This document shows positions 12,272 through 49,742 of a stretch of DNA of 64,000 nt, piece by piece (position 1 is the first letter of the stretch; each line of letters begins with the position of its first letter). Made by a program: the position numbers and the translations under genes. The stretch is from a virus. Lineage: Duplodnaviria; Caudoviricetes. A model generated the notes under the pieces. That model worked only from the letters and a program-made list of their open reading frames with translations, ran no database searches and had not been told where the DNA came from. Location: positions 86,579-150,578 of the IMG/VR virus record IMGVR_UViG_3300028833_000075; one strand, 5' to 3'.

Positions 12272-12505
12272 ATGAAGAAGGTTTTGGCCATTCTGTTGAT
12301 GATCGTGCTACTGATCAGCACGGCCGTCGCGGAATCTTGGACTGTCTTTGTTGTCGGGTTTGACTTCTTGAATGCAGAAGTCATACTCGAGGACGAGGAC
12401 GGCTTCCAATGGTTCTGCCCATTCGGAAAGAACAATTGGGAACTCGGACAGGAGTTCGAATTGGTTTTCTCCGAAAATGGAATTGAGATCTGGGAGGTAG
12501 AATAA
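12272..12505 (+). CDS. small secreted/membrane protein
   Basis: signal peptide MKKVLAILLMIVLLISTAVA; AAGGAGG RBS. Confidence 0.7.
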   Translation: MKKVLAILLMIVLLISTAVAESWTVFVVGFDFLNAEVILEDEDGFQWFCPFGKNNWELGQEFELVFSENGIEIWEVE

Positions 12506-13013
12506 CCGGATTTCTAAGAGCGCAGCAATCCAGCTACGCTCTTTTTTTATTTTTAACGAACACCAAAGAAAGGAGGTGCCAATATGGCAACAGTAATAGT
12601 TGCTGTCATTCTGGCGGCGTTGTTGCTTCCGGACGTAATCCGCTATTACGCAGATTACTATAGAAAGTAAAAAAAGGAGGTGGTCAAACATGTTAGAGAT
12701 TATTATAAAGTCTCTGGCATTGCTTCTCCCCTTAGGAGGAGCATCGTCTTGGATAATTCTTAAATTATCCAAGAAATGGGAACGGGAGTAATCCCGTTCC
12801 TTTTTTTTATTTTTTACGGCGGTCCGCCGGAGCACCTTGAGAAAGTGCGACCTTGGCATTAAAACCGCACAACCGTTGTCTCGATTTAACCCAAGCCTGA
12901 GTCTGTCCCGACTCCGCTTGTGGGGATGCAGTCCCGGGGAGCCCCGGCGTACGCGAAAACGAAACGGGTTCGCAAACATTATAGACAGCTGAAAAGACAG
13001 CAGGAGGTACATT

Positions 13014-16346: not shown

Positions 16347-16435
16347 CACTTGCAACATGGAGACTGCTGAAAAGCGGTCTCCTTTTTTTATTTTCACGCA
16401 GACGGAAGTCTAGCAAAAATAAAGGAGGAGATCCC

Positions 16436-16849
16436 ATGTTCCAGATTTTATTCAAAGACGACGAAGGTCGCGATGTCCTTATGATGGACAAAATGACTGA
16501 AAAGATGGCTGATATCACTATCCAGCGGCTTTCAAATTCTGGCATCAGAGCCGTAAAAGTGAATGCTGCTGAAAAGAAATATCACCTTGCAAAAGTGGTA
16601 TTTGACCTTCAGTTGATCTCGGCTGCCAAAAAGGCCATAAAGAATGGCACCGAGATGAAAGGCGTCTACACCTTTGGAGATCCTGACAAGATCGCTAAAG
16701 AAGATTCTGCTGTTGTTGTTGAGTGTACCACTGGCAAAAAGAAAGTCGCATATGTCGTCTGCCTGTGGATGGCGACCGCCGAAGAGATTAAGGCTTTTAA
16801 GTCCAAGATTGGTTATTCAAAACTTGGTCTTTGTTGTGGAAAGATATAA
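16436..16849 (+). CDS. hypothetical protein
   Basis: 137 aa, AAGGAGG RBS. Confidence 0.7.
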   Translation: MFQILFKDDEGRDVLMMDKMTEKMADITIQRLSNSGIRAVKVNAAEKKYHLAKVVFDLQLISAAKKAIKNGTEMKGVYTFGDPDKIAKEDSAVVVECTTGKKKVAYVVCLWMATAEEIKAFKSKIGYSKLGLCCGKI

Positions 16850-16904
16850 AGAGTGAAAGGAGATAATCAAAGAGAGCTTCGGCTCTCTTTTTTTTATTTT
16901 TACG

Positions 16905-17800
16905 GCAGCCTGAGCCAAGGGGAGTGAAAGCTCCCCAAATTCAGGCAGGGCGACCCATTTTTCAGGCGGGGGGAATTTTTCCGCTTCGCTACTCTGCGCC
17001 TTTTCCGAGGATCTCGACACGCGAAGAGTGGCCACCTTGCGGTGGCCGTGGAAAGTGCATGACTGCAATCTCCATGATTGCAGTTTCTGCGTAGTATCGC
17101 CAGAGATCGCCTTGCGGCGGCAACGGGACACGGTAGGCTGGCAACTACCGCAGGGGCATCACCTGTAAAAGCTTCGGCGCATTGATGCTGGCCCAACGTG
17201 TACCCTGCATGAGTGGTACACCGAACAGGGCATCCTAGCTGGCTGGCAGCGAGCCGCAGTAGACACCTGCGTTACGCAAGCCGTTGGAATAACGTAGAAG
17301 CCCGCATGCGACAGCGTGAACATGCCGCAGGAGTGCGTGAAACCCCGGCGACCTGCTATAGTCGTGAGCCCACCCAGAGGGCTGGGCGGCAGAAACGTTG
17401 CGAAGGCTGTCAGATAGACAGTCGTAAACACCCAAAGACCATGCTGTGCGGTAGAACACCGTAGAACGGACGCGAAAATCCGTGGCGGCGCAGAAGCTAC
17501 CCTGCGTTATCAAAGCAGGCCTTGGCGGTTGGTGAATGATAGGGGAACCGCTCTCAGGACGCACAGTGCCACAAGTGCGTGTACGAGAAGACAGCAGGCA
17601 CAGACCAGATGGTCGACACTCTGGTTCCCTTTGCAGAGGGCACCCGAATGGACTGCAATCTATTTCGGGTGTAATGCGCCGCCGCCGAGTCCCAAGCCTC
17701 GGGGTTTATACGCAGGTACGTCCGGGTACACGTTACTGCCCACCATATTTCACTTCCGCAGCGTTGTGCTGAGAACAGCGTTGCGTTGTTGTGTGCCTTT
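16905..17800 (+). ncRNA. large structured non-coding RNA (about 900 nt), family unassigned
   Basis: GC-rich, no credible ORF; nested long-range helices 17195-17205/17724-17734, 17265-17272/17710-17717, 17340-17347/17700-17707; many local hairpins. Confidence 0.6.
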
Positions 17801-17857
17801 CCGACCGCCTTGCGGCTGGTTTGGAATATGAGAAATAATTTTCAGGGAGGTAGAACC

Positions 17858-18037
17858 ATGTCGAAAGTGAATGAGATGAATTTTGTCCTTCAGGGGCTGT
17901 ATAAAGAGCTGAATGCTCTGAAGAAGGCTCAGCCGACTGAAAGGAACCTGGAAGCTGTTCGCTCGATTGAAAAACGGGCGAAAGAACTGACGATCGCCAT
18001 CCGCCAGTATAAGCTGTCCAGGGGAATGGCTGCTTAA
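17858..18037 (+). CDS. small hypothetical protein
   Basis: GGGAGG RBS, 59 aa. Confidence 0.65.
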   Translation: MSKVNEMNFVLQGLYKELNALKKAQPTERNLEAVRSIEKRAKELTIAIRQYKLSRGMAA

Positions 18038-18343
18038 TTAATTACCTGCCCTGGCTGCTGCTACGCGCCGGTCGGGGCGGAAGATGTTCGACTCAGCCGT
18101 CGTGGTTTCCCTTCTCCACGGCTGGCTGACTTGAGCACCTTCTTCTTCATCCGGGTACAGCCCGGCACCTCCTTTCTTCAACTTGGACAGGGTAGGGGAC
18201 AACCCTGTTCGAGGGCAGGCATGCGTCGGATGACGTGTGCCTGTTTTTTTGTTTCGTCAAATCCGGATTATTTCCGGTGGGGATATTTTCCGAGGGCGGG
18301 GAATTTTTCGCTCACGCTCAATTTGGAATACGGAGGTATTCAT

Positions 18344-18505
18344 ATGCAGAAAATGATTCCGAAATTGAAGATGTCAAAGAAAGCCCGTGACGAGCTGAAC
18401 AAGCAGAAACGAGCCACTTGGGCATTCTCTCCTGTCTCGCGGGTTAAGCAATCTAAGAAGGTTTACAACCGAAAGCGGTCGCGTAGACCTGACGTTGTGG
18501 ATTAA
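18344..18505 (+). CDS. small basic protein
   Basis: GGAGG RBS; MQKMIPKLKMSKKARDELNKQKRATW...SKKVYNRKR. Confidence 0.65.
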   Translation: MQKMIPKLKMSKKARDELNKQKRATWAFSPVSRVKQSKKVYNRKRSRRPDVVD

Positions 18506-18907
18506 CCGCCTTACGGCGGGAACGGGATATGAGGATTCGTTCCTCCGCCAAATTGCTTGAAAGGAGGACTGCAGATTGCATAGCTACACCGCATACACCT
18601 ATTCGGACTACTGGCGTGAATTGCCTGCCCCTGTAGTCCTCCCAAGACCACATAAAACGATTGGCCGCAAGCTTTGCGGTCATGACTCGACGACTCCGCC
18701 GTTGGATTTCCGATCAAATCCAGAATCCCCTGTTTGACTGCAAGTAAGACGTACAGGGAATCAAAAGAGTCCGGTGGAGTAACAGTGCACGGTGAAACAC
18801 CCCGTCTCGACGAGCGGGCAGGACGAGTACAGAGAGATGGAAAGTCCTGTAGAAGTCGCTAGCTGGAAACCGCAAGCCCAGCTGACGGAATTTAAGGAGG
18901 TAATAAC

Positions 18908-19354
18908 ATGGAACGCAAGCAGATCGAAATCTACACTGACGGCGCTTGCTCCGGTAATCCCGGCCCCGGGGGTTACGCCGCCATTCTCGTATTCGGAGAA
19001 CAGAGGAAGGAAATTGCCGGATACGAATCCCGTACAACTAACAACCGTATGGAAATCCGGGCCGCCATCGAAGCAATCCGGAAGCTCAGGATGCCGTGCA
19101 ACATCCTGATCGGCACCGATTCGCAGATCCTCATCAACACTCTTGTTAATTTGGACGAAATGCCTGCAAAAGGCTGGAAGACCAAGACGGGCGCTAAGAG
19201 AGCAAACTGCGACCTGCTTCAGGAACTTTATGCTGTAAAACACGATGGACAACATGAGATCCGGTACCAGTACATCGAAGGTCACAGCGGTAATACCTAC
19301 AATGAACGCTGTGACATGCTAGCCAAAGAGCAGATTCAGCTCCATTCGAGGTAA
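18908..19354 (+). CDS. rnhA: ribonuclease HI
   Basis: IYTDGACSGNPGPGG, TTNNRME, TDSQ, GHSG..NERCDMLA. Confidence 0.95.
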   Translation: MERKQIEIYTDGACSGNPGPGGYAAILVFGEQRKEIAGYESRTTNNRMEIRAAIEAIRKLRMPCNILIGTDSQILINTLVNLDEMPAKGWKTKTGAKRANCDLLQELYAVKHDGQHEIRYQYIEGHSGNTYNERCDMLAKEQIQLHSR

Positions 19355-19468
19355 TCTTATGGAATACGAAGCTTATGAACCAGACCCAAATGACGAATAC
19401 TACGACCAGATGTGTGAAGTTGCGTATGCAAACATGTTTAACCTTTTCTCACTAAAGGAGGAAGATGA

Positions 19469-19777
19469 ATGACTCTTGTAAACGAACTGTCTTGTCTAGG
19501 TTTAATCGTCCTGAGTTTTATTGCAGGACTAAGGTTGGACAACTACTACCGAACGAGGGCTGATGCAGAAAAGAAAGATGCCCTCGAAAGGCAATTTCTC
19601 CGACTGAGAGCTCATGCCGATGCGGATGACCCTGCTCGCCCTTACGGAGTTCCTCAAATGCCTCAGCCTATCCCGGTTTCCGAAACTCCGCAGCCGATTT
19701 CCCAGGAGTTCATGGACGAACTCAAAACGACCGGAAGGGCTAAGACATCCTTTCGTAAATCCGACCTGACTAAGTAA
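19469..19777 (+). CDS. membrane-anchored hypothetical protein
   Basis: N-terminal hydrophobic helix; GGAGG RBS. Confidence 0.65.
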   Translation: MTLVNELSCLGLIVLSFIAGLRLDNYYRTRADAEKKDALERQFLRLRAHADADDPARPYGVPQMPQPIPVSETPQPISQEFMDELKTTGRAKTSFRKSDLTK

Positions 19778-19917
19778 GCCCAGCCTTGCGGCTGGTTTGG
19801 GAAATGGAATCGTACTCTGGTCGATTCTCTCAACATCTTAATCCAGAGCGCTGACGTGGATTAGCGTTGACCACGATTGAACTTGTTAAAATAATAAAAA
19901 TATTGGAGGAAAAAACA

Positions 19918-20307
19918 ATGACTATTACTTTTGACGGAAACATCGGTAAGGACGCCACCCTGCGCACTGTGAAAGTTGGCGGCGAGGACACTAAGGTTTG
20001 CTCTTTCTGGGTCGCGGAAAACATCAGCAAGCGCGACGGCTCCAACAAGACCCTGTGGCACAAGGTGACTATCTGGCGCGGCTATGCTGAGAAGATGGCT
20101 CAGTACCTGAAGAAGGGCCGCCATGTGCTGGTGGAAGGCTATGCCGAGGCTAAGACCTACACCACGCAGGACAACCGGATCGTTCCCTACATCGACGTGC
20201 AGCCCGGCATCGGCGGCAAGATGAAGCTGCTGGACAAGAACACCGCTGAGGAGGTTCCGCCGGAAGCTGAAGCAGCCGCTGACATGGAGACTCCGTGGGA
20301 CGAATAA
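19918..20307 (+). CDS. ssb: single-stranded DNA-binding protein (1 of 3)
   Basis: GNIGKD, WHKVTIW, LKKGRHVLVEG, acidic tail ETPWDE. Confidence 0.9.
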   Translation: MTITFDGNIGKDATLRTVKVGGEDTKVCSFWVAENISKRDGSNKTLWHKVTIWRGYAEKMAQYLKKGRHVLVEGYAEAKTYTTQDNRIVPYIDVQPGIGGKMKLLDKNTAEEVPPEAEAAADMETPWDE

Positions 20308-20386
20308 TTTGACTTATAGCGGTCGGTCGTATTGACTGGCCGCTTATTTTTTTATTTTCACTGCATAGTTAAAAAATATAAGGAGC

Positions 20387-21478
20387 GTGATCGATATGCT
20401 AAAAGGTAAAACACTGACTGAGCTCGCAATGGAGCTCGACCGCCAGAACCGCGAGAAGAAGGACTACTTGCTGGATACCCGCAACCTCGTAATGGATGCT
20501 GACTTTAACGGTGCTATGCTGACCATGCACGACGAGACCAATAACACAAACACGATTCTCGGAGTGAATGATATCGCCCATCAGCAGATCGGGACTGAAC
20601 TGGGTATCCCTCGTGCCTATTACGATAAGATGCGCAGGGAGAATCCTGACCTGCTCGCAGAGAATGTAAATACATGGTTCATGCAGGAACCCAAGGTTCG
20701 CATGGTACGCACCCTTGACGGCACTGCCAGAGCTTTCCTGTCTGACAGGTACCGCCGGATCGACAATTACGATATCGCACAGGAAGTCATTCCGATCCTC
20801 AGCGATCTGAACGTCAAATTTGAATCTAACGAAGTGACTGACAGCCGCATGTACATCAAAGTAGTGAACGAACGGCTTACACAGGAAGTAAAGCCAGGTG
20901 ACTATGTGCAGTCCGGCGTAATTATCACCAACTCCGAAGTCGGACTGGGCCGTGTAACCATCCAGCCGCTTCTCTACCGACTGGTCTGTACAAACGGAAT
21001 GGTCGTGAACGATATTAAGAGCGCTACTTCCCGCAGGCATGTTGGCAAGCGACTGACTGCTAATGACGGCTATGTGCTGTACGCTAACGACACTCTTCTT
21101 GCCGATGACCATGCTCTCCTTCTGAAGATTCGTGACACGATTAAAGCGGCACTGGACGAAGTTCACTTTACCAACTTGATCGAACAGATGCGTACCGCAA
21201 GTGAAGTGAAGATTGAAACTGCGCACATTCCGGAAATGGTACAACTTGCTGCTCCGCAGTTTGGCTTCACGAAGAAGGAGGGTGAGGGAATTCTCGATCA
21301 TCTGATTCGTGGAGGAGATTTGTCCATGTACGGATTTGCTAATGCTGTAACCCGCTTCGCTCAGGACGTGACCTCCTATGACAGGTCCACCGAACTGGAA
21401 GAGATCGGGTACAACATTCTGACAATGCCTGAACGTACCTGGAGAACCCTTCAGAATATCGAAACCTCTGTTGCTTGA
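20387..21478 (+). CDS. DUF932/DUF945-like protein
   Basis: ARAFLSDRYRRIDN, NSEVG, RLVCTNGM motifs. Confidence 0.75.
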   Translation: MIDMLKGKTLTELAMELDRQNREKKDYLLDTRNLVMDADFNGAMLTMHDETNNTNTILGVNDIAHQQIGTELGIPRAYYDKMRRENPDLLAENVNTWFMQEPKVRMVRTLDGTARAFLSDRYRRIDNYDIAQEVIPILSDLNVKFESNEVTDSRMYIKVVNERLTQEVKPGDYVQSGVIITNSEVGLGRVTIQPLLYRLVCTNGMVVNDIKSATSRRHVGKRLTANDGYVLYANDTLLADDHALLLKIRDTIKAALDEVHFTNLIEQMRTASEVKIETAHIPEMVQLAAPQFGFTKKEGEGILDHLIRGGDLSMYGFANAVTRFAQDVTSYDRSTELEEIGYNILTMPERTWRTLQNIETSVA

Positions 21479-21556
21479 TTTACTGGCTGCCCCTTTACTG
21501 GGGTAGCCTTTTTTTAGCCAGTGCTTACGCACTGTTTTGCTTTTTGGTAGTTCACC

Positions 21557-21652
21557 CTTTCCCCATTACGTGATTTTTCGAATGGTCCAACCAGATTCGA
21601 CAATGTACAATTTGGTGGGGACATTCGAAAATTTGCGTATAGGGAAAAAGAA
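21557..21652. promoter_or_regulatory. back-to-back inverted pair of the conserved ~40-bp motif
   Basis: minus copy 21557-21593 and plus copy 21613-21652. Confidence 0.55.
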
Positions 21653-21669
21653 AAAGGAGGAGCTGCAAA

Positions 21670-21966
21670 TTGGAAACTTGTTTTAATTATTGCGATCCAA
21701 ACAAAGGATTTTTCAGTTCCGATGAACGAAAATGGATCACCCGGATAAAAAAGCTGATTAAAGAGTACCCGAACGAAATACGTGTTATTGCTATGCCTGA
21801 AACAAACGACGGCTGTATTTATGTACAACTGCCGACAGAGTGGCTGAAGATCCAGCCTAAACGTGAAGGACGGAAGATGACAGAAGAACAGCGTGCTGTG
21901 GCAACAGAACGACTGGCTCTTGCACGCGAAAAGAAAAAGCTGACGGAATCTTCTTCTGAAGTATAG
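21670..21966 (+). CDS. hypothetical phage protein
   Basis: AAGGAGG RBS, TTG start. Confidence 0.65.
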   Translation: METCFNYCDPNKGFFSSDERKWITRIKKLIKEYPNEIRVIAMPETNDGCIYVQLPTEWLKIQPKREGRKMTEEQRAVATERLALAREKKKLTESSSEV

Positions 21967-22394
21967 TGAAACACTGTAAAACTTTCTTCAATTTCGCGTT
22001 CCAGGACTTCGGACGATAATTTATTCATCCAAGAGTCTGAAGAGGCTAATTTAATTATTTTTTTACAGTCAATTAATAGACTCCCCCGCAAGGGGGAATT
22101 AAGTCGCTTAACAGAAGCCGTACAGAGATACGGAGCGGGTGCAACTCCTGCGAGCGGCTCCATACATCCTGAGAGACTGAAGCTTAACAGAATCGCTGGC
22201 TGAGCAAGCCCGTCGTGTTGGACATGCGGCGACGTTAAAATCCCACCTCCTTTCTGTGCAAGGAATACATTTCTGTTTTGTAAACAGTCGGCTCTTCTTC
22301 TCGGACTGAAATCTGTCGCAGGCTAGTATTCCTGAGCGGTGCAAGTTGGGGATCTTTTGTACAAGATAGTTCAGTTAATCTGGAAGAGCAATAT

Positions 22395-22472
22395 GCACCC
22401 TTAGCTAAGTTGGTCGTAGCGGCGGCCTTATAAGCCGTGTCATTCAGCTGGGTTCGAGTCCCAGAGGGTGTA
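22395..22472 (+). tRNA. tRNA-Ile(TAT)
   Basis: acceptor GCACCCT/AGGGTGT; anticodon arm GCGGC-CTTATAA-GCCGT; T arm CTGGG-TTCGAGT-CCCAG. Confidence 0.8.
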
Positions 22473-22559
22473 CATACCGTCACATCCTTGCGGTATATAA
22501 ATATGGGTGTCGGCAAGCAGGGCCAAACTGCTGCAGGTATGGTAATCAGGCATACCAAA

Positions 22560-22664
22560 ATACGAGTGGCGGAATAGGTGTAGACGCTGCGCGAGGTTGG
22601 TGACATTTTGCCATTAAATTGAGCGGGTAGCCAACTATGTGAGGTGCAAATCCTCACCTCGTAT
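22560..22664 (+). ncRNA. tRNA-like element, copy 1 of 6
   Basis: acceptor ATACGAG/CTCGTAT, D arm TGGCGGAATAGGTGTAGACGC, T arm GTGAG-GTGCAAAT-CCTCAC; no anticodon arm. Confidence 0.65.
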
Positions 22665-22669
22665 CTTAT

Positions 22670-22741
22670 GGGGCATTAACGCAATGGTAGCGTATCTGCT
22701 TTGCAAGCAGAAGGTTAAGGGTTCGAGTCCCTTATGCTCCA
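22670..22741 (+). tRNA. tRNA-Ala(TGC)
   Basis: GGGGCAT/ATGCTCC with G3:U70; TCTGC-TTTGCAA-GCAGA. Confidence 0.9.
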
Positions 22742-23122
22742 CGACAGGAGAGTGTGTTCAGGAAGCACAAAGACTGCAGTGGAACTCTGCAGCTTCTGTT
22801 TATTTTAAACCGAGTGTCTGGGGCAGAACTACATATCCTCAGCCGAAACGCACAAATACTCTTGCCCAGTGTAGGGGTAGGTGATCGGAGCCACGCGGTG
22901 GGCCGACACAAAGAAGAGAGTTGCCGGGTTTACATTCCTGCGGTTTACCGGCGAACCTTTCTGTGGAGTCAAAACGAATATGAAGTAGTAAGACAGTGAA
23001 GCAGAAAGATCGGGTAAGCTCCGATATGTCTTATAAATAGCTCAGCAGGATTTATAAGATGAACAGCACAGCTTGGGTTGATAATTATGGCTGACGTTGC
23101 CGACTACGACAGTGTCGGTCTT

Positions 23123-23196
23123 CGAGGTGTAGCGCAGCTTGGTAGCGCACCTGATTTGGGATCAGGGGGTCGCAGGTTCAAATCCTGTCGCCTCGA
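23123..23196 (+). tRNA. tRNA-Pro(TGG)
   Basis: CGAGGTG/CGCCTCG; CCTGA-TTTGGGA-TCAGG. Confidence 0.92.
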
Positions 23197-23307
23197 CTGT
23201 AACCGCCGATGAGTGTCGTACATCTTGGCCAGTCTTGCAAAAGCAAGTGGGCGGTATATAAATCGAACTCCTTATCTATGTGTAGGTACGACTGCACATA
23301 GCTGTAT

Positions 23308-23390
23308 GCGGATATGACGGAATCGGCAGACGTTCGAGACTTAAAATCTCGTGCTCCATGAGCGTGTGGGTTCAAGTCCCACTATCCGCA
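23308..23390 (+). tRNA. tRNA-Leu(TAA)
   Basis: GCGGATA/TATCCGC; CGAGA-CTTAAAA-TCTCG; long variable arm. Confidence 0.9.
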
Positions 23391-23704
23391 CTTTCCCTTG
23401 CAGAAACTCCATGACTGCTTATTATCAAGGCCGTCATTTATATATAATAATATAATTAAACTTGTTTATCTTTTTGAGCAACAGAATGTATTATTATTAC
23501 ACTTCTTACATGACGTTGTAGTTACTTAATTGGTGTTACTATCACTTCCCATGTTAATGACAATGTTTGTTACTAAAGTTTCTGAATATACAAATGATTG
23601 GATTTCCAAAAGAATATTTAAGTTAAATATGTTACTACTACGGAGATGTTACAAGATTGGTATTGTTACTAAATGTATATTTATAATAATAAGCGTGAAA
23701 GGAT

Positions 23705-33120: not shown

Positions 33121-33504
33121 ATGAACGGACTTAATGAACTCACTATTATCGGAAATGTTGTACGTGACGCTGAACTGAAGAATGTTGATGTGGAAGGAAC
33201 ACCGACTCCTCGATGCCGCTTCTCTGTTGCGGTTAACGAAACACGCGGAAACGGAGAAGATATTGTTACTTATTTCGATATTACAGCTTGGCGGGATTAT
33301 GCAACAAAGATTGCGCCGTGGGTCCTGAAAGGACGCCTGGTTTATGTTAAGGGTTCTGTGCGGCTGAATCAGTATGTTTCCAACGGTACCGTACGGAGTT
33401 CTCTGCAGATTCATGACCCAAAGGTTATCTGGCTTGATAAGAAACCCACGGTTGACGTCAGCTCAATTGAAGAGTTTGACGACGACGAGCTTCCGTTCGG
33501 TTAA
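33121..33504 (+). CDS. ssb: single-stranded DNA-binding protein (2 of 3)
   Basis: IIGNVVRD, FSVAVN, KGRLVYVKG, tail DDDELPF. Confidence 0.9.
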   Translation: MNGLNELTIIGNVVRDAELKNVDVEGTPTPRCRFSVAVNETRGNGEDIVTYFDITAWRDYATKIAPWVLKGRLVYVKGSVRLNQYVSNGTVRSSLQIHDPKVIWLDKKPTVDVSSIEEFDDDELPFG

Positions 33505-33576: not shown

Positions 33577-33795
33577 ATGTGCAAGGTGACTCTGTCTGAT
33601 GAGGATGGGCTGTTTAAAATTTGCCTTGTTTCAAATGAAACCCCATACCAAATTTTAAAGTATTACAATATTAACCCTGATACAAAAATTGTTTATTTGA
33701 ATGGAGAAATTCTTTCAAAAGAAAGAATGAGGAAAGTAATTCTAGAAAACAATTCTGTGCATCTTACGGTTAGAAATAAAACAGTAATGCGATAA
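33577..33795 (+). CDS. small beta-grasp (ThiS/MoaD/Ubl-like) protein without C-terminal Gly
   Basis: ETPYQILKYYNI...IVYLNGEIL...VHLTV pattern parallels the Ubl domain of the next gene. Confidence 0.5.
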   Translation: MCKVTLSDEDGLFKICLVSNETPYQILKYYNINPDTKIVYLNGEILSKERMRKVILENNSVHLTVRNKTVMR

Positions 33796-33850
33796 TAAAA
33801 CATGTCTATAAAGCTTCGGCTTTTAGAAAATAATTTATAGGAGAGATTGT

Positions 33851-34462
33851 ATGGTTAAGATTACTTTGATTACCAGTAACCCTAAGGTAGTTGACATTGT
33901 GCCCGAGACAATGACCGTTCGTGATTTTCTGGATAAGCATAATGTGAACTATGGATTGGCATCTACTTCCATTGATGGTGTACCTCTGCAGTCCGGTGGT
34001 ATGGATATGACTTTTGCCGAATATCAGATTACAGACCGGGCTATTGTGACCTGCCTGCCGAACAAGGACAACGGAGCGCAGGCCATTGTGGTTGGTTCTT
34101 CCTGTGTTGTGAAGTCCACTCTGACCCCGGCAGAAATTAAGCGAATTAAGAAGTTCCATCCCGAAGCTTTGGTAATGGAAAATGAAGACGGAGATCCGGT
34201 ATTTGCTATCGATATCGATGAAACCACTCCTGGTTCTATTAACGGGAATGGTGCCTGTTTCGGCAATGCAACAAGTACCGATGGTAAGGCAACTATTACG
34301 GTTGTTATTGATCCTGCCGCTGAAAACACTATTGAGCTGGTTTACGAAAGGCTGGGCCGTGCTCTGATGTATCTGAAGGAAATGGAAGAGCAGCTTGCTG
34401 AAGTTTTACCGGATTTGGACAGCGAAGAACGTGAAATCCGTTCCATGATTGTTGGTATGTAA
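33851..34462 (+). CDS. ubiquitin-like (beta-grasp) domain protein with C-terminal extension
   Basis: aa1-75 MVKITL..MTVRDFL..SIDGVPL..DMTFAEYQI..IVTCLPNKDNG; lies in an E2/JAB/E1 operon; high-expression codon bias. Confidence 0.65.
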   Translation: MVKITLITSNPKVVDIVPETMTVRDFLDKHNVNYGLASTSIDGVPLQSGGMDMTFAEYQITDRAIVTCLPNKDNGAQAIVVGSSCVVKSTLTPAEIKRIKKFHPEALVMENEDGDPVFAIDIDETTPGSINGNGACFGNATSTDGKATITVVIDPAAENTIELVYERLGRALMYLKEMEEQLAEVLPDLDSEEREIRSMIVGM

Positions 34463-34516
34463 CCTTCGGAGAGGGAGAGATTCTTCCTCTCCCTCTCTAT
34501 TTTACGGAGGTAAAAC

Positions 34517-35881
34517 ATGTTCAATACACACTTAAATTGTATTGCAGAATTTCCTGCATTTTTAAGAGACAAGATTTATGTAAATAATAATGTAGCCCCG
34601 GATGACACGCTGCTGATGACAGCAACTGCGTTGTTGTATCAGAGAGTTGAAAATCTGAAATTAACTTTTGAAGTATTTAATAACAAAGAAGTAGAAAATA
34701 TCAATCTAAACCCGGAAGTATATTCATTTCATTGGTTTAATAATGTTGGAAATCCAGATGAGCTGTTAAATTTAGTAAAGAATAATTTTACTTCAATAGA
34801 AAAACTTTCAACTCATGAAAAGTTTCTGTCTGAGCAACTGAAAATGCCAATATTTATTCGCTTAATGCCAGCTGAAAATACTGTCTGTATTTTCACTTCA
34901 GAAATGTCTTATAAAGCGTGGCACAGTTTTCAGTTCTTTATTCCAAAATACTTCAGGATTTTCAAAGAAAAACCACTTAACAAAGAAGAAATTTCTTTTC
35001 TCGAAACCTTGACGTTCAAAACAAGTTCTTTGTATGAAGCGAGGTTGAGAGAATTATTAGATACGGATTCTTTCAGAAAATATATTTTAAAAGATCGATT
35101 GGAACAGTTTGAAAGAAAGCTGTTTGAAGCTAAAGTTCAAGCTGCCAAAAACAATCTTGCAAGCCTTGAAAATGAAATGAACGCGGCCATGGAAGCTTAT
35201 AGAAAAGCTTGCGAGAAAAGAATTGAAGCTATTGCGCTTGTATCAGGTCTGCAATCTATGGCAGATCAGACGGAAGAACACACTGAATTGCAGGATTACC
35301 TGTTAAATAATCAAAGGCTTTGCAATGTAACACTAGATAATTCCACGATTTCATACATTGTGAAAACATATCTGGCCCCACACCATATAGGCGAATGGGA
35401 AATGATAACAAAACACATTCAGTATTTTGATCAGTATCTTACAAGCAAATTTACACGCACAGAGATAAAGCTTCTGCTTGATGCGATCTTCTCGGAAAAC
35501 CGCTGCCTAAAAGTAAAAATGTGTGCCTATTTCTCTTTGGATTACTTTGGAAGCAAGGTTACATCAGCATATAAATATAATTTTGCTAATGTAAACAAAA
35601 CACTGATGAACTATATTCCAAACCCTCATTTGCACTATCATAATTGCTTTGGGCAGAATAAGGAAGCAATATTGGAACAGCTAAAATGCGGCGATGCAAT
35701 CGGAGCGATCGAGTGCTCTGTGGCTTGCGCTCAAAGGGTTAACATTCACGAAAATCTGAGCTTTGGACCTTTTGTGCGGGACTTGTTATCATGTTCCGGC
35801 AAATGTCTTGTAACGGAAGATGGAACTGAATTAACGCCAGAGGAAGCTGTTGCATATCTGAAAGGACAAGATAATGAATAA
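34517..35881 (+). CDS. coiled-coil protein with C-terminal E2-like (UBC-fold) domain
   Basis: central coiled coil (aa ~195-250); PNPHLHYHNCFG resembles the prokaryotic E2 PH...C(L/F)G active site; context. Confidence 0.55.
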   Translation: MFNTHLNCIAEFPAFLRDKIYVNNNVAPDDTLLMTATALLYQRVENLKLTFEVFNNKEVENINLNPEVYSFHWFNNVGNPDELLNLVKNNFTSIEKLSTHEKFLSEQLKMPIFIRLMPAENTVCIFTSEMSYKAWHSFQFFIPKYFRIFKEKPLNKEEISFLETLTFKTSSLYEARLRELLDTDSFRKYILKDRLEQFERKLFEAKVQAAKNNLASLENEMNAAMEAYRKACEKRIEAIALVSGLQSMADQTEEHTELQDYLLNNQRLCNVTLDNSTISYIVKTYLAPHHIGEWEMITKHIQYFDQYLTSKFTRTEIKLLLDAIFSENRCLKVKMCAYFSLDYFGSKVTSAYKYNFANVNKTLMNYIPNPHLHYHNCFGQNKEAILEQLKCGDAIGAIECSVACAQRVNIHENLSFGPFVRDLLSCSGKCLVTEDGTELTPEEAVAYLKGQDNE

Positions 35882-36461
35882 TGAAATTGTATTGAAAGAC
35901 TGGCAAACTCACTGTGGGTTCGCCAGTCCACAAAGTAATATAAACATTTACTATTCACCTTTGGCTATTACAAAAACAATTATGCTTGTAAATACCCATC
36001 CTGAAGAAATTGGTTGGAATATGGTAGTAAAGCCTTATAAAGACGGGTATAAAGTTGAGGATATCGTAGTATATCCCCAAAAAGTAAGTCCGGCATATGT
36101 TTCAGTTGACCTTCCAAGGTATGGATTGTGGAAAGCAAACCTTGACGACGAAGTAGAAGCTAATTTGTTTGGAAACGGACATTCTCATGTTAACATGAGT
36201 ACTTTCGCATCATCCGTCGATGAACGTCAGCAGCATGATGAAATCCTGACAAAGAAAAACGGATTTTATCTTTTCCAGATATGGAACAAAAGAAATGAAA
36301 TAAGCTCATTCTTTTATGATATTGATAATAAAATTTTCTATCGACCGGAAAATGTTAACATAATCGTAGAAGAAGCAAATGAGTTTATTATAAACTCTTT
36401 TGAAATCGTACAAGGAAGACATAATCGGATCAACGCTTATGAGGCAGGTGAAGATTTTTGA
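35874..36461 (+). CDS. JAB/MPN metalloprotease (DUB-like)
   Basis: EIGW (catalytic Glu), GHSHVNMSTFASSVD = HxH-x7-S-x2-D. Confidence 0.85.
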   Translation: MNNEIVLKDWQTHCGFASPQSNINIYYSPLAITKTIMLVNTHPEEIGWNMVVKPYKDGYKVEDIVVYPQKVSPAYVSVDLPRYGLWKANLDDEVEANLFGNGHSHVNMSTFASSVDERQQHDEILTKKNGFYLFQIWNKRNEISSFFYDIDNKIFYRPENVNIIVEEANEFIINSFEIVQGRHNRINAYEAGEDF

Positions 36462-37126
36462 ATCTAAGTAAATCTTATGAGTTTTTTAATCCGGATAAAT
36501 GCAAGGAAATGATCCATATTATTGGTTGTGGATCTGTCGGCTCTACGGTAGCTGAACTTTTGGCAAGATTTGGTTTAACAAAAATCTCGCTATATGACTT
36601 TGATACTGTTGAGCCGCATAATATTGTAAACCAGATGTTTGTTCATCGCCAAATCGGAATGCCGAAGGTAGAAGCTGTACGAGAAATTTTGTTAGATATC
36701 AATCCTGAAATGAATGTTAAGATGTATACCAAAGGATGGAACGGCGAGCCTCTGGATGGATACGTATTTCTTGCAGTAGATAATATTGAACTAAGAGCAA
36801 AAATTGTAAAAGAAAACCTATATAATGATTTTATAAAAGCTTTCTTTGATTTCAGAACCGGACTTACAAATGCTGACCACTTTGCAGCAGATTGGTCCGA
36901 ATTTAAAAGCAGAAAAAATTTTTTAAACACGATGAACTTTACACACGAAGAAGCGAAACAAAATACACCTGTTTCAGCGTGTAATGTAGCTCTGTGTGTA
37001 GCTCCTACAGTAAGAATGGTTTGTAATGTAGGAATAGCAAATTTCATCAATTTTGTAAAAGGAGAACATTTGCATAAGCTGATTCCAATTGATGCATTTA
37101 GTTTCTCTGTCGAACCTGTTGGTTAA
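36458..37126 (+). CDS. ThiF/MoeB-family E1-like adenylating enzyme
   Basis: IIGCGSVGS, DFDTVEPHNIVNQ, KVEA, LAVDN...R, DFRTG, SAC. Confidence 0.92.
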   Translation: MNLSKSYEFFNPDKCKEMIHIIGCGSVGSTVAELLARFGLTKISLYDFDTVEPHNIVNQMFVHRQIGMPKVEAVREILLDINPEMNVKMYTKGWNGEPLDGYVFLAVDNIELRAKIVKENLYNDFIKAFFDFRTGLTNADHFAADWSEFKSRKNFLNTMNFTHEEAKQNTPVSACNVALCVAPTVRMVCNVGIANFINFVKGEHLHKLIPIDAFSFSVEPVG

Positions 37127-37150
37127 TATAGGTTAATCTATATTCCAAAT

Positions 37151-37450
37151 ACTCATGCAATGCATAGTGAGAGAAATCTCGAACTCTTAATGTGATTATG
37201 AGTAGCAATTCGCCTGATGAGGGGGTAGGGCTCCTGAAAGAGCTGGAGGCGGCGGACGTCGAAGAAATCCTAGGAAAATGTGGGCAGCGTGATAGAAAAG
37301 TCCTGTAATCTCGGAGGAAATAAGGTAGGCACGAGGGAAAGGTAAAGGGAAGTCAGTTGAAACGCGGTAAACGGTAGATAAAAGGCCTGGATCCTGGGAA
37401 CGTTTCGGTCGTCACTGGAAAGACATATAACGATTTAGATTGCATGGAGT
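37151..37450 (+). ncRNA. retron-like msr/msd ncRNA #1 (upstream of RT)
   Basis: terminal inverted repeats ACTCATGCAAT (37151-61) and ATTGCATGGAGT (37439-50); G37162 right after the 5' repeat; two short stem-loops; purine-rich template ending TTTAG. Confidence 0.7.
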
Positions 37451-37457
37451 GATAAAA

Positions 37458-38588
37458 ATGATTTACATAACAATCAGACAGAAAGAAAAAGAAAAACAAA
37501 TTAGTTGGCTTGATTTAATCAGCGAAGAAGAAATTCCTCTCAGTGATTTCTCTTCGTGCGGCTCTGCCGGAACTGTAACAAGAGCGCTTAATGAGGCAAC
37601 GCCCGAACTGCTTCGCAGAATTAATCCAGAAGAAATGATTAATGTTTTGAAACGGTTTAATACCTCACATGAAAACCTGTTTAAAGCAGACCGTAAAACT
37701 CTGTATCGACATTTCAGCATTCCAAAGAAAACAGGTGGACTGCGGCCTATCGATGCGCCATGTGATGAGCTTCAAAATGCGCTGGATGAACTGAGGATTA
37801 TCTTAACTGAAAAGTTTGGAGTTCTTTATCATACATCGGCCTTTGCATACATTCCGAATAGAAGCACTGTACAGATGGTAAGAAAACATCAGGTAAATGA
37901 ATCAAATTGGTTTTATAAAACAGACGTCAGCGGATTCTTTCCACACACGACACTGAGCTTTACAATGAAGATGCTGTCAATGATCTTTCCTTTAAGTGAG
38001 ATTTGCAAAGTACAGGAAGGATATGCAGAACTGGAAAAAGCTTTAAGTCTTGGTTTCCTAAACGGCGGTCTTCCGCAGGGAACAAAACTGAGTCCGGCGC
38101 TGACGAATATGATTGCTATCCCGATTGATCATCGACTGTTTAATGATCTTGCGCACAAGCGTTTTGTGTATACTCGATATGCAGATGATCTGCATATTTC
38201 ATGTCAGCAGAAATTCGATTCTGAAAAGATGACTAAATACATTGAAAAGGTATTTAAAGAATTTGATGCTCCATGGATTCTGAAGCCCGAGAAAACACAT
38301 TACGGAAGCAGAAAAGGTAAGAATTTTATGCTTGGTGTAGTTCTTAACGCGAACAATGATATTTCGACGGGATGGAGAAATAAGAAGCTTTTCAAAGCAA
38401 TGACAACAAACTTAATTATGGATTGGAAAAATAATAAGTATTGGCCCGCCGATGACGTTCAACAGTACGCAGGGTTATTGTCTTATTATAAAATGGTAGA
38501 GAAAGAATACTTCGATAATCTGGTAGATCACTTTAACAATAAATTCTCTGTAAACCTCAAACAAATTATAAAGGAACTAGTTTCCTAA
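37458..38588 (+). CDS. retron-type reverse transcriptase
   Basis: IPKKTGGLRPIDAP, AFAY, VRKH (NAxxH position), KTDVSGFF, GLPQGT..SP, YTRYADDL, KTH, MLG (VTG position); no maturase or endonuclease domain. Confidence 0.88.
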   Translation: MIYITIRQKEKEKQISWLDLISEEEIPLSDFSSCGSAGTVTRALNEATPELLRRINPEEMINVLKRFNTSHENLFKADRKTLYRHFSIPKKTGGLRPIDAPCDELQNALDELRIILTEKFGVLYHTSAFAYIPNRSTVQMVRKHQVNESNWFYKTDVSGFFPHTTLSFTMKMLSMIFPLSEICKVQEGYAELEKALSLGFLNGGLPQGTKLSPALTNMIAIPIDHRLFNDLAHKRFVYTRYADDLHISCQQKFDSEKMTKYIEKVFKEFDAPWILKPEKTHYGSRKGKNFMLGVVLNANNDISTGWRNKKLFKAMTTNLIMDWKNNKYWPADDVQQYAGLLSYYKMVEKEYFDNLVDHFNNKFSVNLKQIIKELVS

Positions 38589-38598
38589 TTTTACAGTA

Positions 38599-38764
38599 TG
38601 ACATAATGAATTGCATTAAATGCTCAGTGCATGTAATGAACTGATAGGCAACGATACAGTCTATCCAATTGTAATGTTGTACAGCTGCAGAAAATGAAAT
38701 GCTTGATTTTCTGCAGCTGTAAACCTTACAATTGGAATGTCAATAATATATTTAGATCATGTCA
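38599..38764 (+). ncRNA. retron-like msr/msd ncRNA #2 (downstream of RT)
   Basis: inverted repeats TGACATAAT (38599-607) and ATCATGTCA (38756-64); G38608; two short stem-loops; long hairpin 38664-38736; ends TTTAG like ncRNA #1. Confidence 0.7.
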
Positions 38765-38852
38765 GATGTACAATTTGGAAAGAAAACCGTAAAATGGTAA
38801 GCTAAAAAGTGTCAAACATATTGATAATAAACACTTCCGATGATGTCAAATC

Positions 38853-38891
38853 TGGTGGGGACATTCGAGAATTTACGTAATGGGGAAAGAA
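38853..38891 (+). promoter_or_regulatory. conserved ~40-bp motif copy
   Basis: TGGTGGGGACATTCGAGAATTTACGTAATGGGGAAAGAA. Confidence 0.55.
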
Positions 38892-39208
38892 TGCACAGCT
38901 AAAACAGCTTACTTTTTATTAAGGTTCAAAATAGTTGTTTTATATCGTGCATTTTATACATTATTCTCTACTGGGCAAATTGGCAGCTAATAACGTTTAC
39001 TTTTTTTATAGCAAATGAGCCGTAGAGGCTCGCATATTAAATTAACGTTATGATTTGCCAAACAAACAAAGCTAGTGCGGCTTACTATATATATATAGAA
39101 ATAAAAGAAGAAAACAGTCGCACAATTTCTACTTTATGCGGAACGCTAGTCAGGCTTACTTTTCTAAAATACTTGGAATATTTTTAGTTTGACGATACCG
39201 TTCCGCAT
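38891..39208 (+). ncRNA. array of four small hairpin RNAs (GCTA-N5-GYTTACT)
   Basis: motif at 38898, 38986, 39071, 39145, each with a covarying 3' partner strand. Confidence 0.65.
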
Positions 39209-39232
39209 CTTTTTTCTGAAAGGAGTAAGGTT

Positions 39233-41673: not shown

Positions 41674-41758
41674 GTCCGTTTGGCCGAGAGGCTTATGGCT
41701 GTAGTCTTGAAAACTACTGAGTGTAAAAGCTCCGCAGGTTCGAATCCTGCAGCGGACG
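41674..41758 (+). tRNA. tRNA-Ser(TGA)
   Basis: GTCCGTT/AGCGGAC; GTAGT-CTTGAAA-ACTAC; long variable arm. Confidence 0.85.
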
Positions 41759-42052
41759 CTTGGAAAAACTAATAGAAATCCAATCTTACTTACTTTCCGC
41801 TCGCAAGAGAACTTTCAAGTAAGAACGGTAGATGCTGTGGCAGAAATATTGCAGTGTGCAAACCTACGGGTCGCTCCCGGCACGAGGATTAGTGAAGTAC
41901 TGAACCAGCTTAGTAGGGTCAGATACCATGAGACTGGCTGAACGGCTAAAACCGGAAACCTTAAACGGAAAACAGGGAGAAACGTTCGGCGAACTGCTAA
42001 TCACAAGGTAACTCAATGATAGGTGAAAGTCCTATCCAGTATCTTTTTTTAT

Positions 42053-42126
42053 GCTGATGTCGCCCAGTTGGCTAGGGAATCGCTCTTGTAAAGCGAACGT
42101 CGTTGGTTCGAGTCCAACCATCAGCT
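42053..42126 (+). tRNA. tRNA-Thr(TGT)
   Basis: GCTGATG/CATCAGC; TCGCT-CTTGTAA-AGCGA. Confidence 0.88.
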
Positions 42127-42225
42127 CTTCAAAACCCGGAAAAGTACATATTGAGTTTTGAGTACTGATCATACTTTTTGTAAATATGTGACCTTCGTCC
42201 GTTGTGGGGTAACAGCGGTCATATT

Positions 42226-42300
42226 GCTCTCGTGGCGCAATTGGAAGCGCGACTGATTTGTAATCAGTAGGCTTTGTGGGTTCAAGTCCCACCGGGAGCT
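42226..42300 (+). tRNA. tRNA-Thr(TGT), second divergent copy
   Basis: GCTCTCG/CGGGAGC; ACTGA-TTTGTAA-TCAGT. Confidence 0.85.
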
Positions 42301-42556
42301 CATTCTCCGTGGACACTTGATATTTATATCATAGAAGTCGGATGGGTTTTAGGAAGTCCTGAACGAAGCCCCTTAAGCGGCACATTGTAGTTGCGGTTGT
42401 GCAGAATTAACCAAGAGGCCGTCTGGAAACGATCTGTTGACAGCTTGGAAAGACAAGCGTTTTCCGTGTCGTTGATGCGGACTTGTGAACCGTCGGAACA
42501 AAGACGTAAAACATGTTCATGAAGCCATGCGATAAAGGTATGGCTTCTATTTTTAT

Positions 42557-42631
42557 TGGGGATTCGTATATTGGTTATTACGCCCGGCTTTGACCCGGGA
42601 AAGGGCGGATCGTAACCGTCATCCCCAGCCA
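42557..42631 (+). tRNA. tRNA-Gln(TTG)
   Basis: TGGGGAT/ATCCCCA-G-CCA; CCCGG-CTTTGAC-CCGGG. Confidence 0.85.
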
Positions 42632-45980: not shown

Positions 45981-45983
45981 TAT

Positions 45984-46055
45984 CGGATCGTAGTTTAACG
46001 GAGAAAACGACGGTAATTTACTGGATAATTGACAGTTCGATTCTGTCCGATCCGA
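45984..46055 (+). tRNA. degenerate tRNA (pseudo; anticodon arm non-canonical)
   Basis: CGGATCG/CGATCCG acceptor, D arm and GACAG-TTCGATT-CTGTC T arm; no 7-nt anticodon loop. Confidence 0.5.
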
Positions 46056-46101
46056 ATAAAAACATTTCTAATACAAAACTAAATATAAAGGAGTAAAAGG
46101 T

Positions 46102-47317: not shown

Positions 47318-49027
47318 ATGTCAGAAAAAAGCTATCTCAAAAATCAGATCAAATTAGTAAGTCTTAACGCAAATGATACATTCACAGACGAAGAGTACGA
47401 TAAATACTTAGAAATCATTTCGTACGTGAATGAAATCGACAAACTTGATGCCAGCGAACTAACAGAAGACGCAGTTCGAAAGAAAGAATTAATTGCAAAG
47501 AAAAAGATTGCATCCAGCAAACTTTCTCAAATGATCTGCAAACATAAAGGAACACCAAGAAAAGTTCGTTTGGAATCTGTCATCTTTCATAAGAAAGATG
47601 AAGAAATTCCGGATGGAGTAACATGGCAAAACCTTAAACTATCCAAGAAAATTGCTGAATTTGAATCTGATATGTCGAGAGCAATGGGTCTTCATACAGA
47701 TGAGCATACGTTTGACAAAATTATTGTCAAATGGAAGAATCTGGATCTTCTTGAACAACTGGTAGTAGACGGATTTACAATGGATTTATTAGTTGACGGA
47801 AAAATAATACAAAAAAAATATCGATATTTTAGCAGTTCAGCCGGTCAACTAAGAACAGATAAAACAGCTTTTCTGTCTGAAGACGTATGGAATCAAATCA
47901 AGAATCGAATTGAGTGTGGTTTGGATTGGGATACAATTAACGCCAGAGGCGGCGTAAACGTGAATAAAATGCTCGCCTATTGGTCTCTATGCTCTTCTGC
48001 TTCAATTCCATGGCCGGAATTCGACATTGACAAAACAATCGTTATTAACGATTTTGAAGCAGAAGTTACAGATAGAATGCTGTATATCAAGCCAGACTAC
48101 ACAACAGAAGATGCTATTCGTACTGTTGTAATTAATCATACCGATGGAGCAGGAATGTATATTCCTGGGTCCGACGTGATCCCTGTCGATCTCGATGGAA
48201 AAAACTTTATGATGCGTGGACCGACATTTAAAGGTTTATTGTCTCCTTTCTCGGTTCTGGAATTCTGTAAGAAACACGGGATCGAACCAATAATAAAAGA
48301 TCGATGGGGAAAAGTATGGAATATTGAAAAAGATAACATACAAATCATCTTCACAGATAGTCAATTCAAATGTGGCAAACTCTTTACTTCATACGAAGAA
48401 TTTAAAGAGCAATACAAAAAGAATGGTTGTCAGTTTGTTATCGCACAATTCGAAGAAGACTGGCCACCGGACAAAACAATGAACTACCAATTCATTCAGG
48501 CTCTTACAAACTTCACCAATGAAGAGATAAAAGAATTTACCGCTAAAACACACAGAAGAATCATGAATCTCGCTAAAGATCCTGCTTCAATGTTAAGTGC
48601 ATTAAAAGCAAAAGAAGATTCTTATCTTAAAGATAAGATAGCTCTTTCGATATATCCAGAACTTCTGCGTGACGGATATAGCAGAGCCCAATTGAAAGAC
48701 GTTAAGAAAAGAATGCTTCTTGATGCCAAGTCAGGTACAATCAGGTGTAAAAATAAAAGGTTGTACGTTGTTCCCGACTGGTATGCGGCTTGCGAGCACT
48801 GGTTTCTCAATCTTGAAAAACCGGATGGGCTGCTTGAAAAAGATGAAGTAGGATGTTCAATTTATAAAAAAGACTACGAAAAAGCTGACGTGTTAAGATC
48901 TCCAAGCTTGTATATGGAACATTGCGTCGTCAGGATCTCGAAAAATCCTGAGGTATATAAGTGGTTATGCAGTGACGGAATCTATACATCTGTAAAATCA
49001 CTTATTAGTCGCGTGCTCCAGTTCGAT
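47318..49027 (+). CDS. YonO-like RNA polymerase #2, exon 1
   Basis: SSAGQLR, TDGAG, RGPTFKG, LRSP; ends ...LQFD at the intron (570 codons). Confidence 0.85.
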
Positions 49028-49742
49028 CAACGGTCGAATTAAAACGCAGTGAACCCAGAAATCTGGGGTGTCCGAAAGGGCTAACGGCGAAAGCTAAACC
49101 GAAAGGCATGCTAACGTTCGTGCTAAGTTCAGACATATAGCTTCACGAAGAAAGGTGAAGTTATGAAAAAAGAAATTGAATACAAAGGAACACATGTTAT
49201 TGTTTCGGATAACGGTACAATTATCTGGAATAATAAAATTAGAAACCATTATCTTAATGGTGATGGATATCCTTGTGTCTCAATCAAAACAGATAAAGGA
49301 TGGAGAATGATAGGTGTAGCAAGGCTTGTTGCATTAGCGTTCATTCCTAATCCTGAAAATCTTTCGGAAGTAGATCATATTAATTTCGATAGAACAGATT
49401 TTTCTATCTCTAATTTAGTTTGGATTTCACACAAAGAAAATGTTCGGAGAAGCGTTGTGAACAAACCGGATATACGCGGAGAAAAGAATCTAAACTACGG
49501 CAATAGAAAATTAAGTCAGTTCTATAAAGATCATCCGGAAATCGCAAAACAGAAACAAGGCCGACCTGGAAAACAAAATGGCAGGTATATTAACGGCCGC
49601 TATATGTCTGAAAAAGTGTAACGACTATCCCGAAAGGGAGTACATGACTGGTGAAACTCCAGCGTGGAAGCGCTGCGGCAGCGAAAGCTGTATGAAATAG
49701 TCTAATCCCCTAATAAATATCGGGAAACCGAGGGTATAAATG
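49028..49742 (+). mobile_element. group I intron with HNH endonuclease
   Basis: P1 TTCGAT/GTCGAA with U:G at the splice site; P10 CAAC/GTTG; AACGACTA and ATAGTCTA core (R/S) elements; terminal G; splicing restores FDVDGD in frame. Confidence 0.9.
49163..49621 (+). CDS. intron-encoded HNH homing endonuclease
   Basis: VSDNG, GY..V, RLVALAFIPNP, EVDHINFDRTD..ISNLVW..HKEN. Confidence 0.85.
   Translation: MKKEIEYKGTHVIVSDNGTIIWNNKIRNHYLNGDGYPCVSIKTDKGWRMIGVARLVALAFIPNPENLSEVDHINFDRTDFSISNLVWISHKENVRRSVVNKPDIRGEKNLNYGNRKLSQFYKDHPEIAKQKQGRPGKQNGRYINGRYMSEKV

Follow-up and report, generated by a model that had tools for sequence, protein, structure and literature searches.

A stretch of viral DNA in which genes for the conjugation of a ubiquitin-like protein (Ubl) run directly into a retron raises the question of whether the two sets of genes work as one system or simply lie side by side. 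The stretch analysed here (the window) comprises 64,000 nucleotides, positions 86,579 to 150,578 of the IMG/VR virus record IMGVR_UViG_3300028833_000075 (Duplodnaviria; Caudoviricetes). The block in question occupies positions 33577–38764 of the window, and all its features lie on the plus strand. It encodes, in order, a small Ubl paralogue, a Ubl fused to a second domain (X), an E2-like protein, a JAB metallopeptidase, a ThiF-type E1 and a retron-type reverse transcriptase (RT) with its noncoding RNAs (ncRNAs). A preliminary description, made from the nucleotides alone, had proposed such a co-oriented block; every element of it was found where it had been placed, and several were redefined. 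The locus is most likely a composite, phage-borne module, that is, a new retron type whose partner is a Bil-like set of Ubl conjugation genes.

The linkage of the two gene sets carries most of this interpretation. Among RT-anchored loci with more than 5 kb of upstream DNA, the genes for X/Ubl, the E2-like protein, JAB and E1 were present in 32 of 32 metagenomic loci and in 38 of 41 from metagenome-assembled genomes (MAGs). When the E2-like gene served as the anchor, all 12 loci with enough DNA carried the RT, down to 20–28% identity, and none was without it. These counts bear out the suggestion that the RT is inherited together with the Ubl genes as a single unit, and a check on the closest RT homologues without Ubl genes, and on the reverse case, did not overturn it. 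The loci thus show the co-conserved accessory (effector) genes by which retrons are recognized. In two of the three MAG exceptions (L109 and L115), 6–8 kb are inserted between E1 and RT and the cassette stands further upstream, with the RNA units still adjoining the RT; the third is weighed below. The genes that flank the block are not conserved between loci. Among phages with a related terminase, three (G004–G006) have both RT and E1, and the complete sister genome G007 has neither; this joint absence indicates that the block comes and goes as a whole and is dispensable. RT distances follow those of the E2-like protein, JAB and E1 (r 0.79–0.89, Mantel p ≤ 0.001, 66 loci) as closely as the Ubl enzymes follow one another, in correlations that are inflated by the relatedness of the sequences. 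Altogether, the combination of Ubl genes and retron recurs in more than 100 loci, far above chance.

The RT (376 residues, 37458–38588) starts at the ATG at 37458, the listed open reading frame beginning at a TTG at 37440, and keeps a conserved YADD motif. Its assignment to the retrons, already made in the preliminary description, is a profile ranking and holds as such: RVT_1 is matched at 3e-17 and the PADLOC model RT_II-A at 1e-43, with retron RTs as the top 24 models. In NCBIfam, retron St85 (6.7e-46; 157 bits, under the cut-off of 235 bits) stands ahead of group II (6e-23) and Drt2 (3.5e-8). Among the 13 retron types of Mestre et al. 2020, the RT profile comes nearest to type II-A, the St85 family.

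Between E1 and RT lies a retron-type ncRNA of 295 nt (ncRNA 1, 37153–37447). A retron-like RNA leading from E1 into the RT had been anticipated correctly as to its type; it starts 27 nt past the E1 stop, not 25, and it is usually accompanied by at least one further template RNA. The closing stem pairs a 5′ arm at 37153–37161 (TCATGCAAT) with a 3′ arm at 37439–37447 (ATTGCATGG), the latter ending 11 nt ahead of the RT start. Inside it are a candidate branching G at 37162, stem-loop 1 (37169–37180), stem-loop 2 (37183–37203) and TTTAG at 37434–37438. A strict closing stem, defined by 8 bp or more, a G after the 5′ arm, an AG before the 3′ arm and an end less than 50 nt from the RT, was present in 59 of 106 non-redundant loci vs 4 of 530 shuffles. 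With 38 distinct arm sequences, the stem covaries, and stem-loop 2 shows compensatory changes in all six of its predicted pairs. In the 5′ scaffold, the G is followed by a pair of stem-loops and by a conserved linker resembling GTAACA.TTG. A search with a covariance model built on the scaffold (R1) gave 105 matches in 58 loci, every one on the RT strand, mostly one to three before the RT and one to three after it, and commonly two to five ncRNA units flank the RT. The match of ncRNA 1 to R1 reaches 33.6 bits (E 3e-7).

A second retron ncRNA is probable at 38599–38764. Its putative arms (38599–38607 and 38756–38764) pair at eight of nine positions, with a G at 38608, TTTAG at 38751–38755 and a near-perfect long hairpin at 38664–38736. 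Against R1 it scores only 4.4 bits, which is not significant; similar downstream units occur in 25 of 58 loci vs 9% of shuffles, a scaffold is shared, and the nearest relatives have short downstream units like that of the window. The middle (template) parts of the RNAs vary even among close relatives, and a comparison with the rest of the 150,578-bp genome yielded no second copy, only chance matches of at most 19 nt. Also considered was an open frame of the Neo type, which in DRT2 runs across the template RNA; it was rejected because 10 loci showed no consistent stop-free frame.

The locus resembles known retrons in an RT that scores best against retron models, a covarying closing stem with the G right after the 5′ arm, msr-like stem-loops and co-conserved partner genes. 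It differs from them in its phage carrier, in RNA units on both sides of the RT, in the length of ncRNA 1 (about 295 nt) and its lack of a long msd hairpin, in degenerate RT motifs and in its partner, a whole Ubl conjugation set that falls outside the described effector types. No ThiF, ubiquitin or JAB partner figures in the classification of Mestre et al. 2020. The Bil paper (bioRxiv 10.1101/2023.09.26.559546) makes no mention of RT or retron, and the term "reverse transcriptase" is absent from the 2006 survey of prokaryotic Ubl systems (PMC1779556). In the literature searched, which leaves out most subscription journals, neither a pairing of a retron with a Ubl cascade nor a paper combining RT, ThiF, JAB, ubiquitin-like and phage was found, in line with the statement of the preliminary description that no such retron type is known to have been described.

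The E1 next to ncRNA 1 (222 residues, 36458–37126) is a minimal ThiF-type enzyme that consists of the adenylation domain only. It contains a GxGxxG motif and is identified by the Pfam ThiF family (9e-25, residues 19–217), as previously proposed. Its profile matches UBA5 in the Protein Data Bank (PDB) at 3.9e-15 and also Uba1, MoeB, MccB (5e-11), PaaA (4e-7) and Cap2 (4e-10), and the PADLOC model of the CBASS Cap2 E1–E2 enzyme is matched at 1.9e-18. The invariant C175 is the only conserved Cys of the protein. In about a quarter of the loci, an optional DUF6273 (PF19789) gene stands between E1 and the first RNA unit (e.g., L004:10073–10843 and L100:5158–6033; best E 9e-29); the window does not have it.

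The preceding gene encodes a JAB/JAMM metallopeptidase (195 residues, 35874–36461), in which E45, H103-S-H105, S113 and D116 are invariant in all relatives and whose profile finds Rpn11 in the PDB (E 8e-5); the earlier identification as a JAB protease is thus sound. The same applies to the reported overlaps of stop and start codons, which lie at 35874–35881 (E2-like/JAB) and, as TTGA, at 36458–36461 (JAB/E1). In most relatives, JAB is a longer protein of 270–335 residues (e.g., L004:8456–9382, L011:6956–7963 and L081:3128–4111), with additional helical sequence at the N-terminus and a tail rich in Gly, Tyr and Ser whose acidic and aromatic end is reminiscent of the tails of single-stranded DNA-binding proteins (SSBs). 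The window encodes the short form, with the C-terminus ...AGEDF.

The E2-like protein (454 residues, 34517–35881) comprises an N-terminal alpha/beta domain, a long helix (184–250) and a C-terminal domain (257–452) that bears Y366, N369, H371 and C377; residues 368–379 read PNPHLHYHNCFG. It had been described as an E2-like protein with a coiled coil. The long helix and an invariant Cys were indeed found, and the expected UBC fold is reduced to a weak RWD/UBC-like match of the C-terminal domain. This match and the invariant Cys weakly suggest that the protein is E2-like. Family searches with the E2-like protein and JAB in Pfam, PADLOC, PHROGs and NCBIfam gave no match. For the E2-like protein, the profile search against PDB sequences returned coiled-coil noise only, Foldseek with the whole model found no match, and a shape search in the ESM Atlas led to unnamed viral clusters only. 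The catalytic residues of the module, namely YADD of the RT, the JAMM motif, C175 of E1 and H371 and C377 of the E2-like protein, are conserved to at least 97%.

In gene order (Ubl, E2, JAB deubiquitinase (DUB), E1), the cassette is the same as BilABCD. The latter is a bacterial anti-phage operon of type I or II (ISG15-like or ubiquitination-like), whereas the module described here is borne by a phage and not located in a bacterial defence island. Moreover, the Bil E1 is a multidomain enzyme with a mobile catalytic-Cys domain, in contrast to the bare adenylation domain found here, and the E2-like protein belongs to an unnamed family without sequence match to Prok-E2 or CEHH. An extra and obligatory X, as well as the constant association with a retron, further set the module apart. 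The PRTRC system is likewise a set of ThiF, E2-like, JAB and Ubl-like genes carried by mobile elements. However, the E1 matches TIGR03736 only at E 4e-5 (23 bits vs a cut-off of 144.75), ParB and a Prok-E2 Pfam match are missing here, and PRTRC has no RT.

The Ubl itself is found at the N-terminus of a 203-residue protein. Its domain (residues 1–75, 33851–34075) has a SUMO/ubiquitin fold with the C-terminal end D73-N74-G75. The X domain follows (residues 76–203, 34076–34462) as a beta-rich domain with a 40-residue C-terminal helix, to which no fold family could be assigned. The preliminary description had seen a Ubl fusion with an extension. Both parts are present, and the protein is better described as a Ubl-X precursor, since X and Ubl are two genes in 57 of 70 loci and the single gene of the window is a fusion of them. 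In the split loci, X comes first (about 130 residues, starting MAKITIAG... and aligning with the window protein from residue 76 onward), followed by a free Ubl of about 75 residues. The free Ubl ends in ...VVKADNA in 22 of 47 distinct sequences, and in ...DNAA, ...DNAC, ...DGAR, ...DNGVA, ...IGG or ...YGG in the rest; the Asn beside the last residue of the tail is nearly invariant.

The C-terminus of the free Ubl thus coincides with the fusion joint of the window protein, where the free X in turn begins with MA.... Because the free Ubl stops at this very motif, N74-G75 corresponds to the di-glycine with which ubiquitin ends. In the same way, A76 matches the residue with which free X naturally begins once its initiator Met has been removed, so that G75|A76 is the expected processing site and the window protein is predicted to be a precursor cut at this bond. 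The module encodes a beta-grasp Ubl with a small, presumably reactive C-terminal residue that would be exposed either directly or by DUB trimming. Eukaryotic ubiquitin–ribosomal protein fusions are ubiquitin fusion precursors of this kind. As in these, a Ubl is fused head to tail and without linker to a protein that is separate elsewhere, and a deubiquitinase is expected to release both; unlike in these, the partner has no assigned function and the processing enzyme would be the JAB of the same operon. The DUB of Bil is known to pre-process its Ubl by trimming extensions (bioRxiv 10.1101/2023.09.26.559546).

Since the fusion joins the Ubl to the N-terminus of X, X appears to be the best candidate for an adaptor or first target of conjugation. 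Stand-alone X proteins of two gut siphoviruses are its structural neighbours in BFVD (TM 0.84 and 0.79); the look-up of X in the structure Atlas gave no usable match, and the Ubl-X protein had no family match in Pfam, PADLOC, PHROGs or NCBIfam. Downstream of the Ubl-X gene, a consensus scan alone points to a terminator-like hairpin with an 11-bp stem (34468–34492), a possible attenuator. The small gene at the upstream edge of the block (33577–33795) encodes a stand-alone Ubl paralogue of 72 residues whose tail lacks Gly/Ala. Its beta-grasp character, suspected earlier, is supported by a profile alignment with the adjoining Ubl domain of Ubl-X (hhalign 95.8%, E 7.8e-9). As its homologues are confined to four close loci, it is a lineage-specific extra outside the conserved core.

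Taken as a whole, these data make it rather probable that the locus is one functional unit, used in conflict, with a retron and a Ubl conjugation that are mutually dependent. Conflict between phage and host defence or between phages, and not core replication, is suggested by the dispensability of the module within its lineage. By analogy with Bil for the tagging and with retrons for an RT–msDNA complex (msDNA, multicopy single-stranded DNA) that holds partner proteins, a sequence of events can be proposed. JAB would cut Ubl-X after G75, releasing a Ubl that ends in a small residue and an X that begins, like free X, with Ala. E1 would adenylate the Ubl C-terminus, and its own C175 may relay the Ubl, which would then pass to C377 of the E2-like protein and finally to a target amine. 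The RT would reverse transcribe some of the sequence of the ncRNAs around it into msDNA, with the G beside the closing stem as the priming site, and the resulting complex would hold or steer the partner proteins, so that Ubl tagging would be turned on or directed only in a certain condition of infection.

Within the interpretation as one unit, a retron that acts as regulator or guide, with tagging as the output, is moderately favoured. A fuller version can be offered tentatively, as a serious possibility. The module would be a new retron type of virulent-looking phages, in which msDNA made from several interchangeable templates gates or aims Ubl conjugation against host defences or rival phages, and X would serve as adaptor or first substrate, possibly tagged at its N-terminus.

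Several observations weigh against a single retron-based unit. The retron RT motifs NAXXH (region X) and VTG (region Y), of which H and G are the most conserved residues (Mestre et al. 2020), are degenerate here; only H144 and G293 are kept, both invariant, and the other positions read DAVRKH-like and xLG. The overall fold of ncRNA 1 is no better than that of shuffles (z −0.47), and the long msd hairpin is missing from it. Part of the co-inheritance is owed to common ancestry within a single phage lineage. Finally, the third MAG exception (L130, JAISOV010000017.1) has a 41% identical RT on a bacterial chromosome and no cassette anywhere in the assembly. Genes for a CCA-adding enzyme and MazG lie upstream of this RT and a phage-type integrase downstream. 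It looks like the nearest ordinary bacterial retron and is possibly an ancestor-like form.

The main rival, which is considered unlikely, reverses the direction of control. The Ubl machinery would regulate the polymerase as Cap2/Cap3 do with the CD-NTase. Attachment of Ubl by E1 and the E2-like protein to the RT, or to RT-bound X, would switch cDNA synthesis on and JAB would reverse it; msDNA, not the tag, would then be the active product, for instance as a decoy for host nucleases or defence sensors. The linkage data also speak for this scheme, and type II CBASS does offer a precedent of a nucleotide-polymerising enzyme genetically locked to E1, E2 and JAB, to whose Cap2 models the present E1 is matched in both PADLOC and the PDB. 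Several template RNAs with fast-changing msd parts would also be consistent with selection on the product itself. Unlike in CBASS, however, E1 and E2 are separate proteins, the Ubl is free and no cyclic-nucleotide effector is present. The C-terminus of the RT is neither conserved nor Gly/Ala-like, which argues that it is not the conjugated end and that the RT itself is not a substrate of E1, and there is no evidence of a lysine target in the RT.

Quite improbable is a second scheme in which the C-terminus of the Ubl, or X, is joined to nucleic acid and an MccB-related E1 helps to make a protein–msDNA conjugate. Such chemistry would fit the inseparability of the RT and the Ubl set, and it could draw on the E1 matches to MccB and PaaA and on the nearly invariant penultimate Asn of the Ubl tail. 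However, the tails ...GG and ...DGA of some relatives indicate that N74 aligns with the penultimate Gly of ubiquitin and not with a terminal Asn as in MccA, and a Cys-bearing E2-like protein together with JAB fits ordinary thioester and isopeptide chemistry.

That a Bil-like cassette and a retron are independent neighbours, kept together by the shared descent of the phage genomes, is very improbable. It is true that the loci all belong to a single broad group of phages from gut, rumen and termites, that related sequences show correlation whatever the tree, and that L109 and L115 tolerate their insertions between E1 and RT. Against this stand a block that stays while its flanks turn over, its persistence at the lowest E2-like identities, the loss of both RT and E1 in G007, and the tally of loci, with no E2-like locus lacking the RT and the cassette missing from one of about 73 RT loci. 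It is scarcely credible that the RT belongs to another class, that is, a diversity-generating retroelement (DGR), a group II intron or a DRT/UG defence RT: DGRs are the usual RTs of phages and the group II and Drt2 models do score, but the retron profiles score far higher, the Rfam search found no intron, the closing stem with its adjacent G is of retron type, and a DGR was rejected as the absence of a second copy of the template regions leaves no template repeat/variable repeat pair in the genome.

The carrier of the module is known in full, as the source record is a complete genome of 150,578 bp with direct terminal repeats, of which the window is the final 64 kb. Genes for portal, large terminase, major head protein, primase-helicase and DNA polymerase, together with ten tRNAs, identify it as a large tailed phage, in agreement with the earlier attribution to a phage. 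No match at the DNA level was found among deposited phages, and the E2-like protein had none in 50,697 phage records; the search of cultured and deposited phages found a 40% RT in a single unannotated faecal contig only. The family is large, with about 2,000 clusters at 50% identity for the E2-like domain alone, and is present in samples of human gut, rumen and termite gut. A possible cultured handle on the module is the isolate-labelled assembly of Clostridiales Family XIII bacterium PM5-7 (L145, JBNDKG010000001.1), where a 428.7-kb contig contains the full module amid phage-like genes for an HNH endonuclease and a DNA methyltransferase.

Other features of the window are given here for completeness. 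The ten tRNA genes are clustered at 22395–23391, 41674–42631, 45983–46056 and 6411–6486; tRNA-Thr(TGT) is present twice, and the tRNA-Asn at 45983 has the unusual anticodon ATT. Positions 12000–22000 have a G+C content of 0.48–0.51 vs about 0.38 elsewhere. Within this richer block are an open reading frame for 1110 residues (13014–16346, phrog_8308), with a paralogue at 47318–49042, and a match to the type-P5 twister ribozyme on the plus strand (17632–17701; 48.3 bits vs a gathering score of 37.6). Two SSB paralogues, 37% identical, are encoded at 19867–20307 and 33121–33504, the second immediately upstream of the Ubl–retron block. Past the second RNA unit, a gap of 470 nt (38766–39232) holds hairpins and repeated boxes CAGCT..GCTTACTTTTT at 38896, 38984, 39068 and 39142. 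A piece of 27–46 nt from this gap (about 38843–38890) is repeated at 21557–21639 and 11242–11272 of the window, has two further copies within the opening 5 kb of the genome, and may be a shared regulatory element.

The module offers compact and previously undescribed families of E2-like and X proteins as well as a natural Ubl fused to its partner. The anatomical observation that split X and Ubl genes in relatives reveal the expected processing site of the fused window protein is new. Retron template RNAs already serve as programmable DNA donors, and for this reason the module could become a tool. Retrons and bacterial Ubl systems, both among the most active topics in phage–bacterium conflict, have until now been known as separately operating bacterial defences; in this module the two are locked together on the side of the virus. 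Should the RT product govern or guide the tagging with Ubl, reverse transcription would be linked to protein conjugation for the first time, and a new viral way of marking proteins would be at hand.

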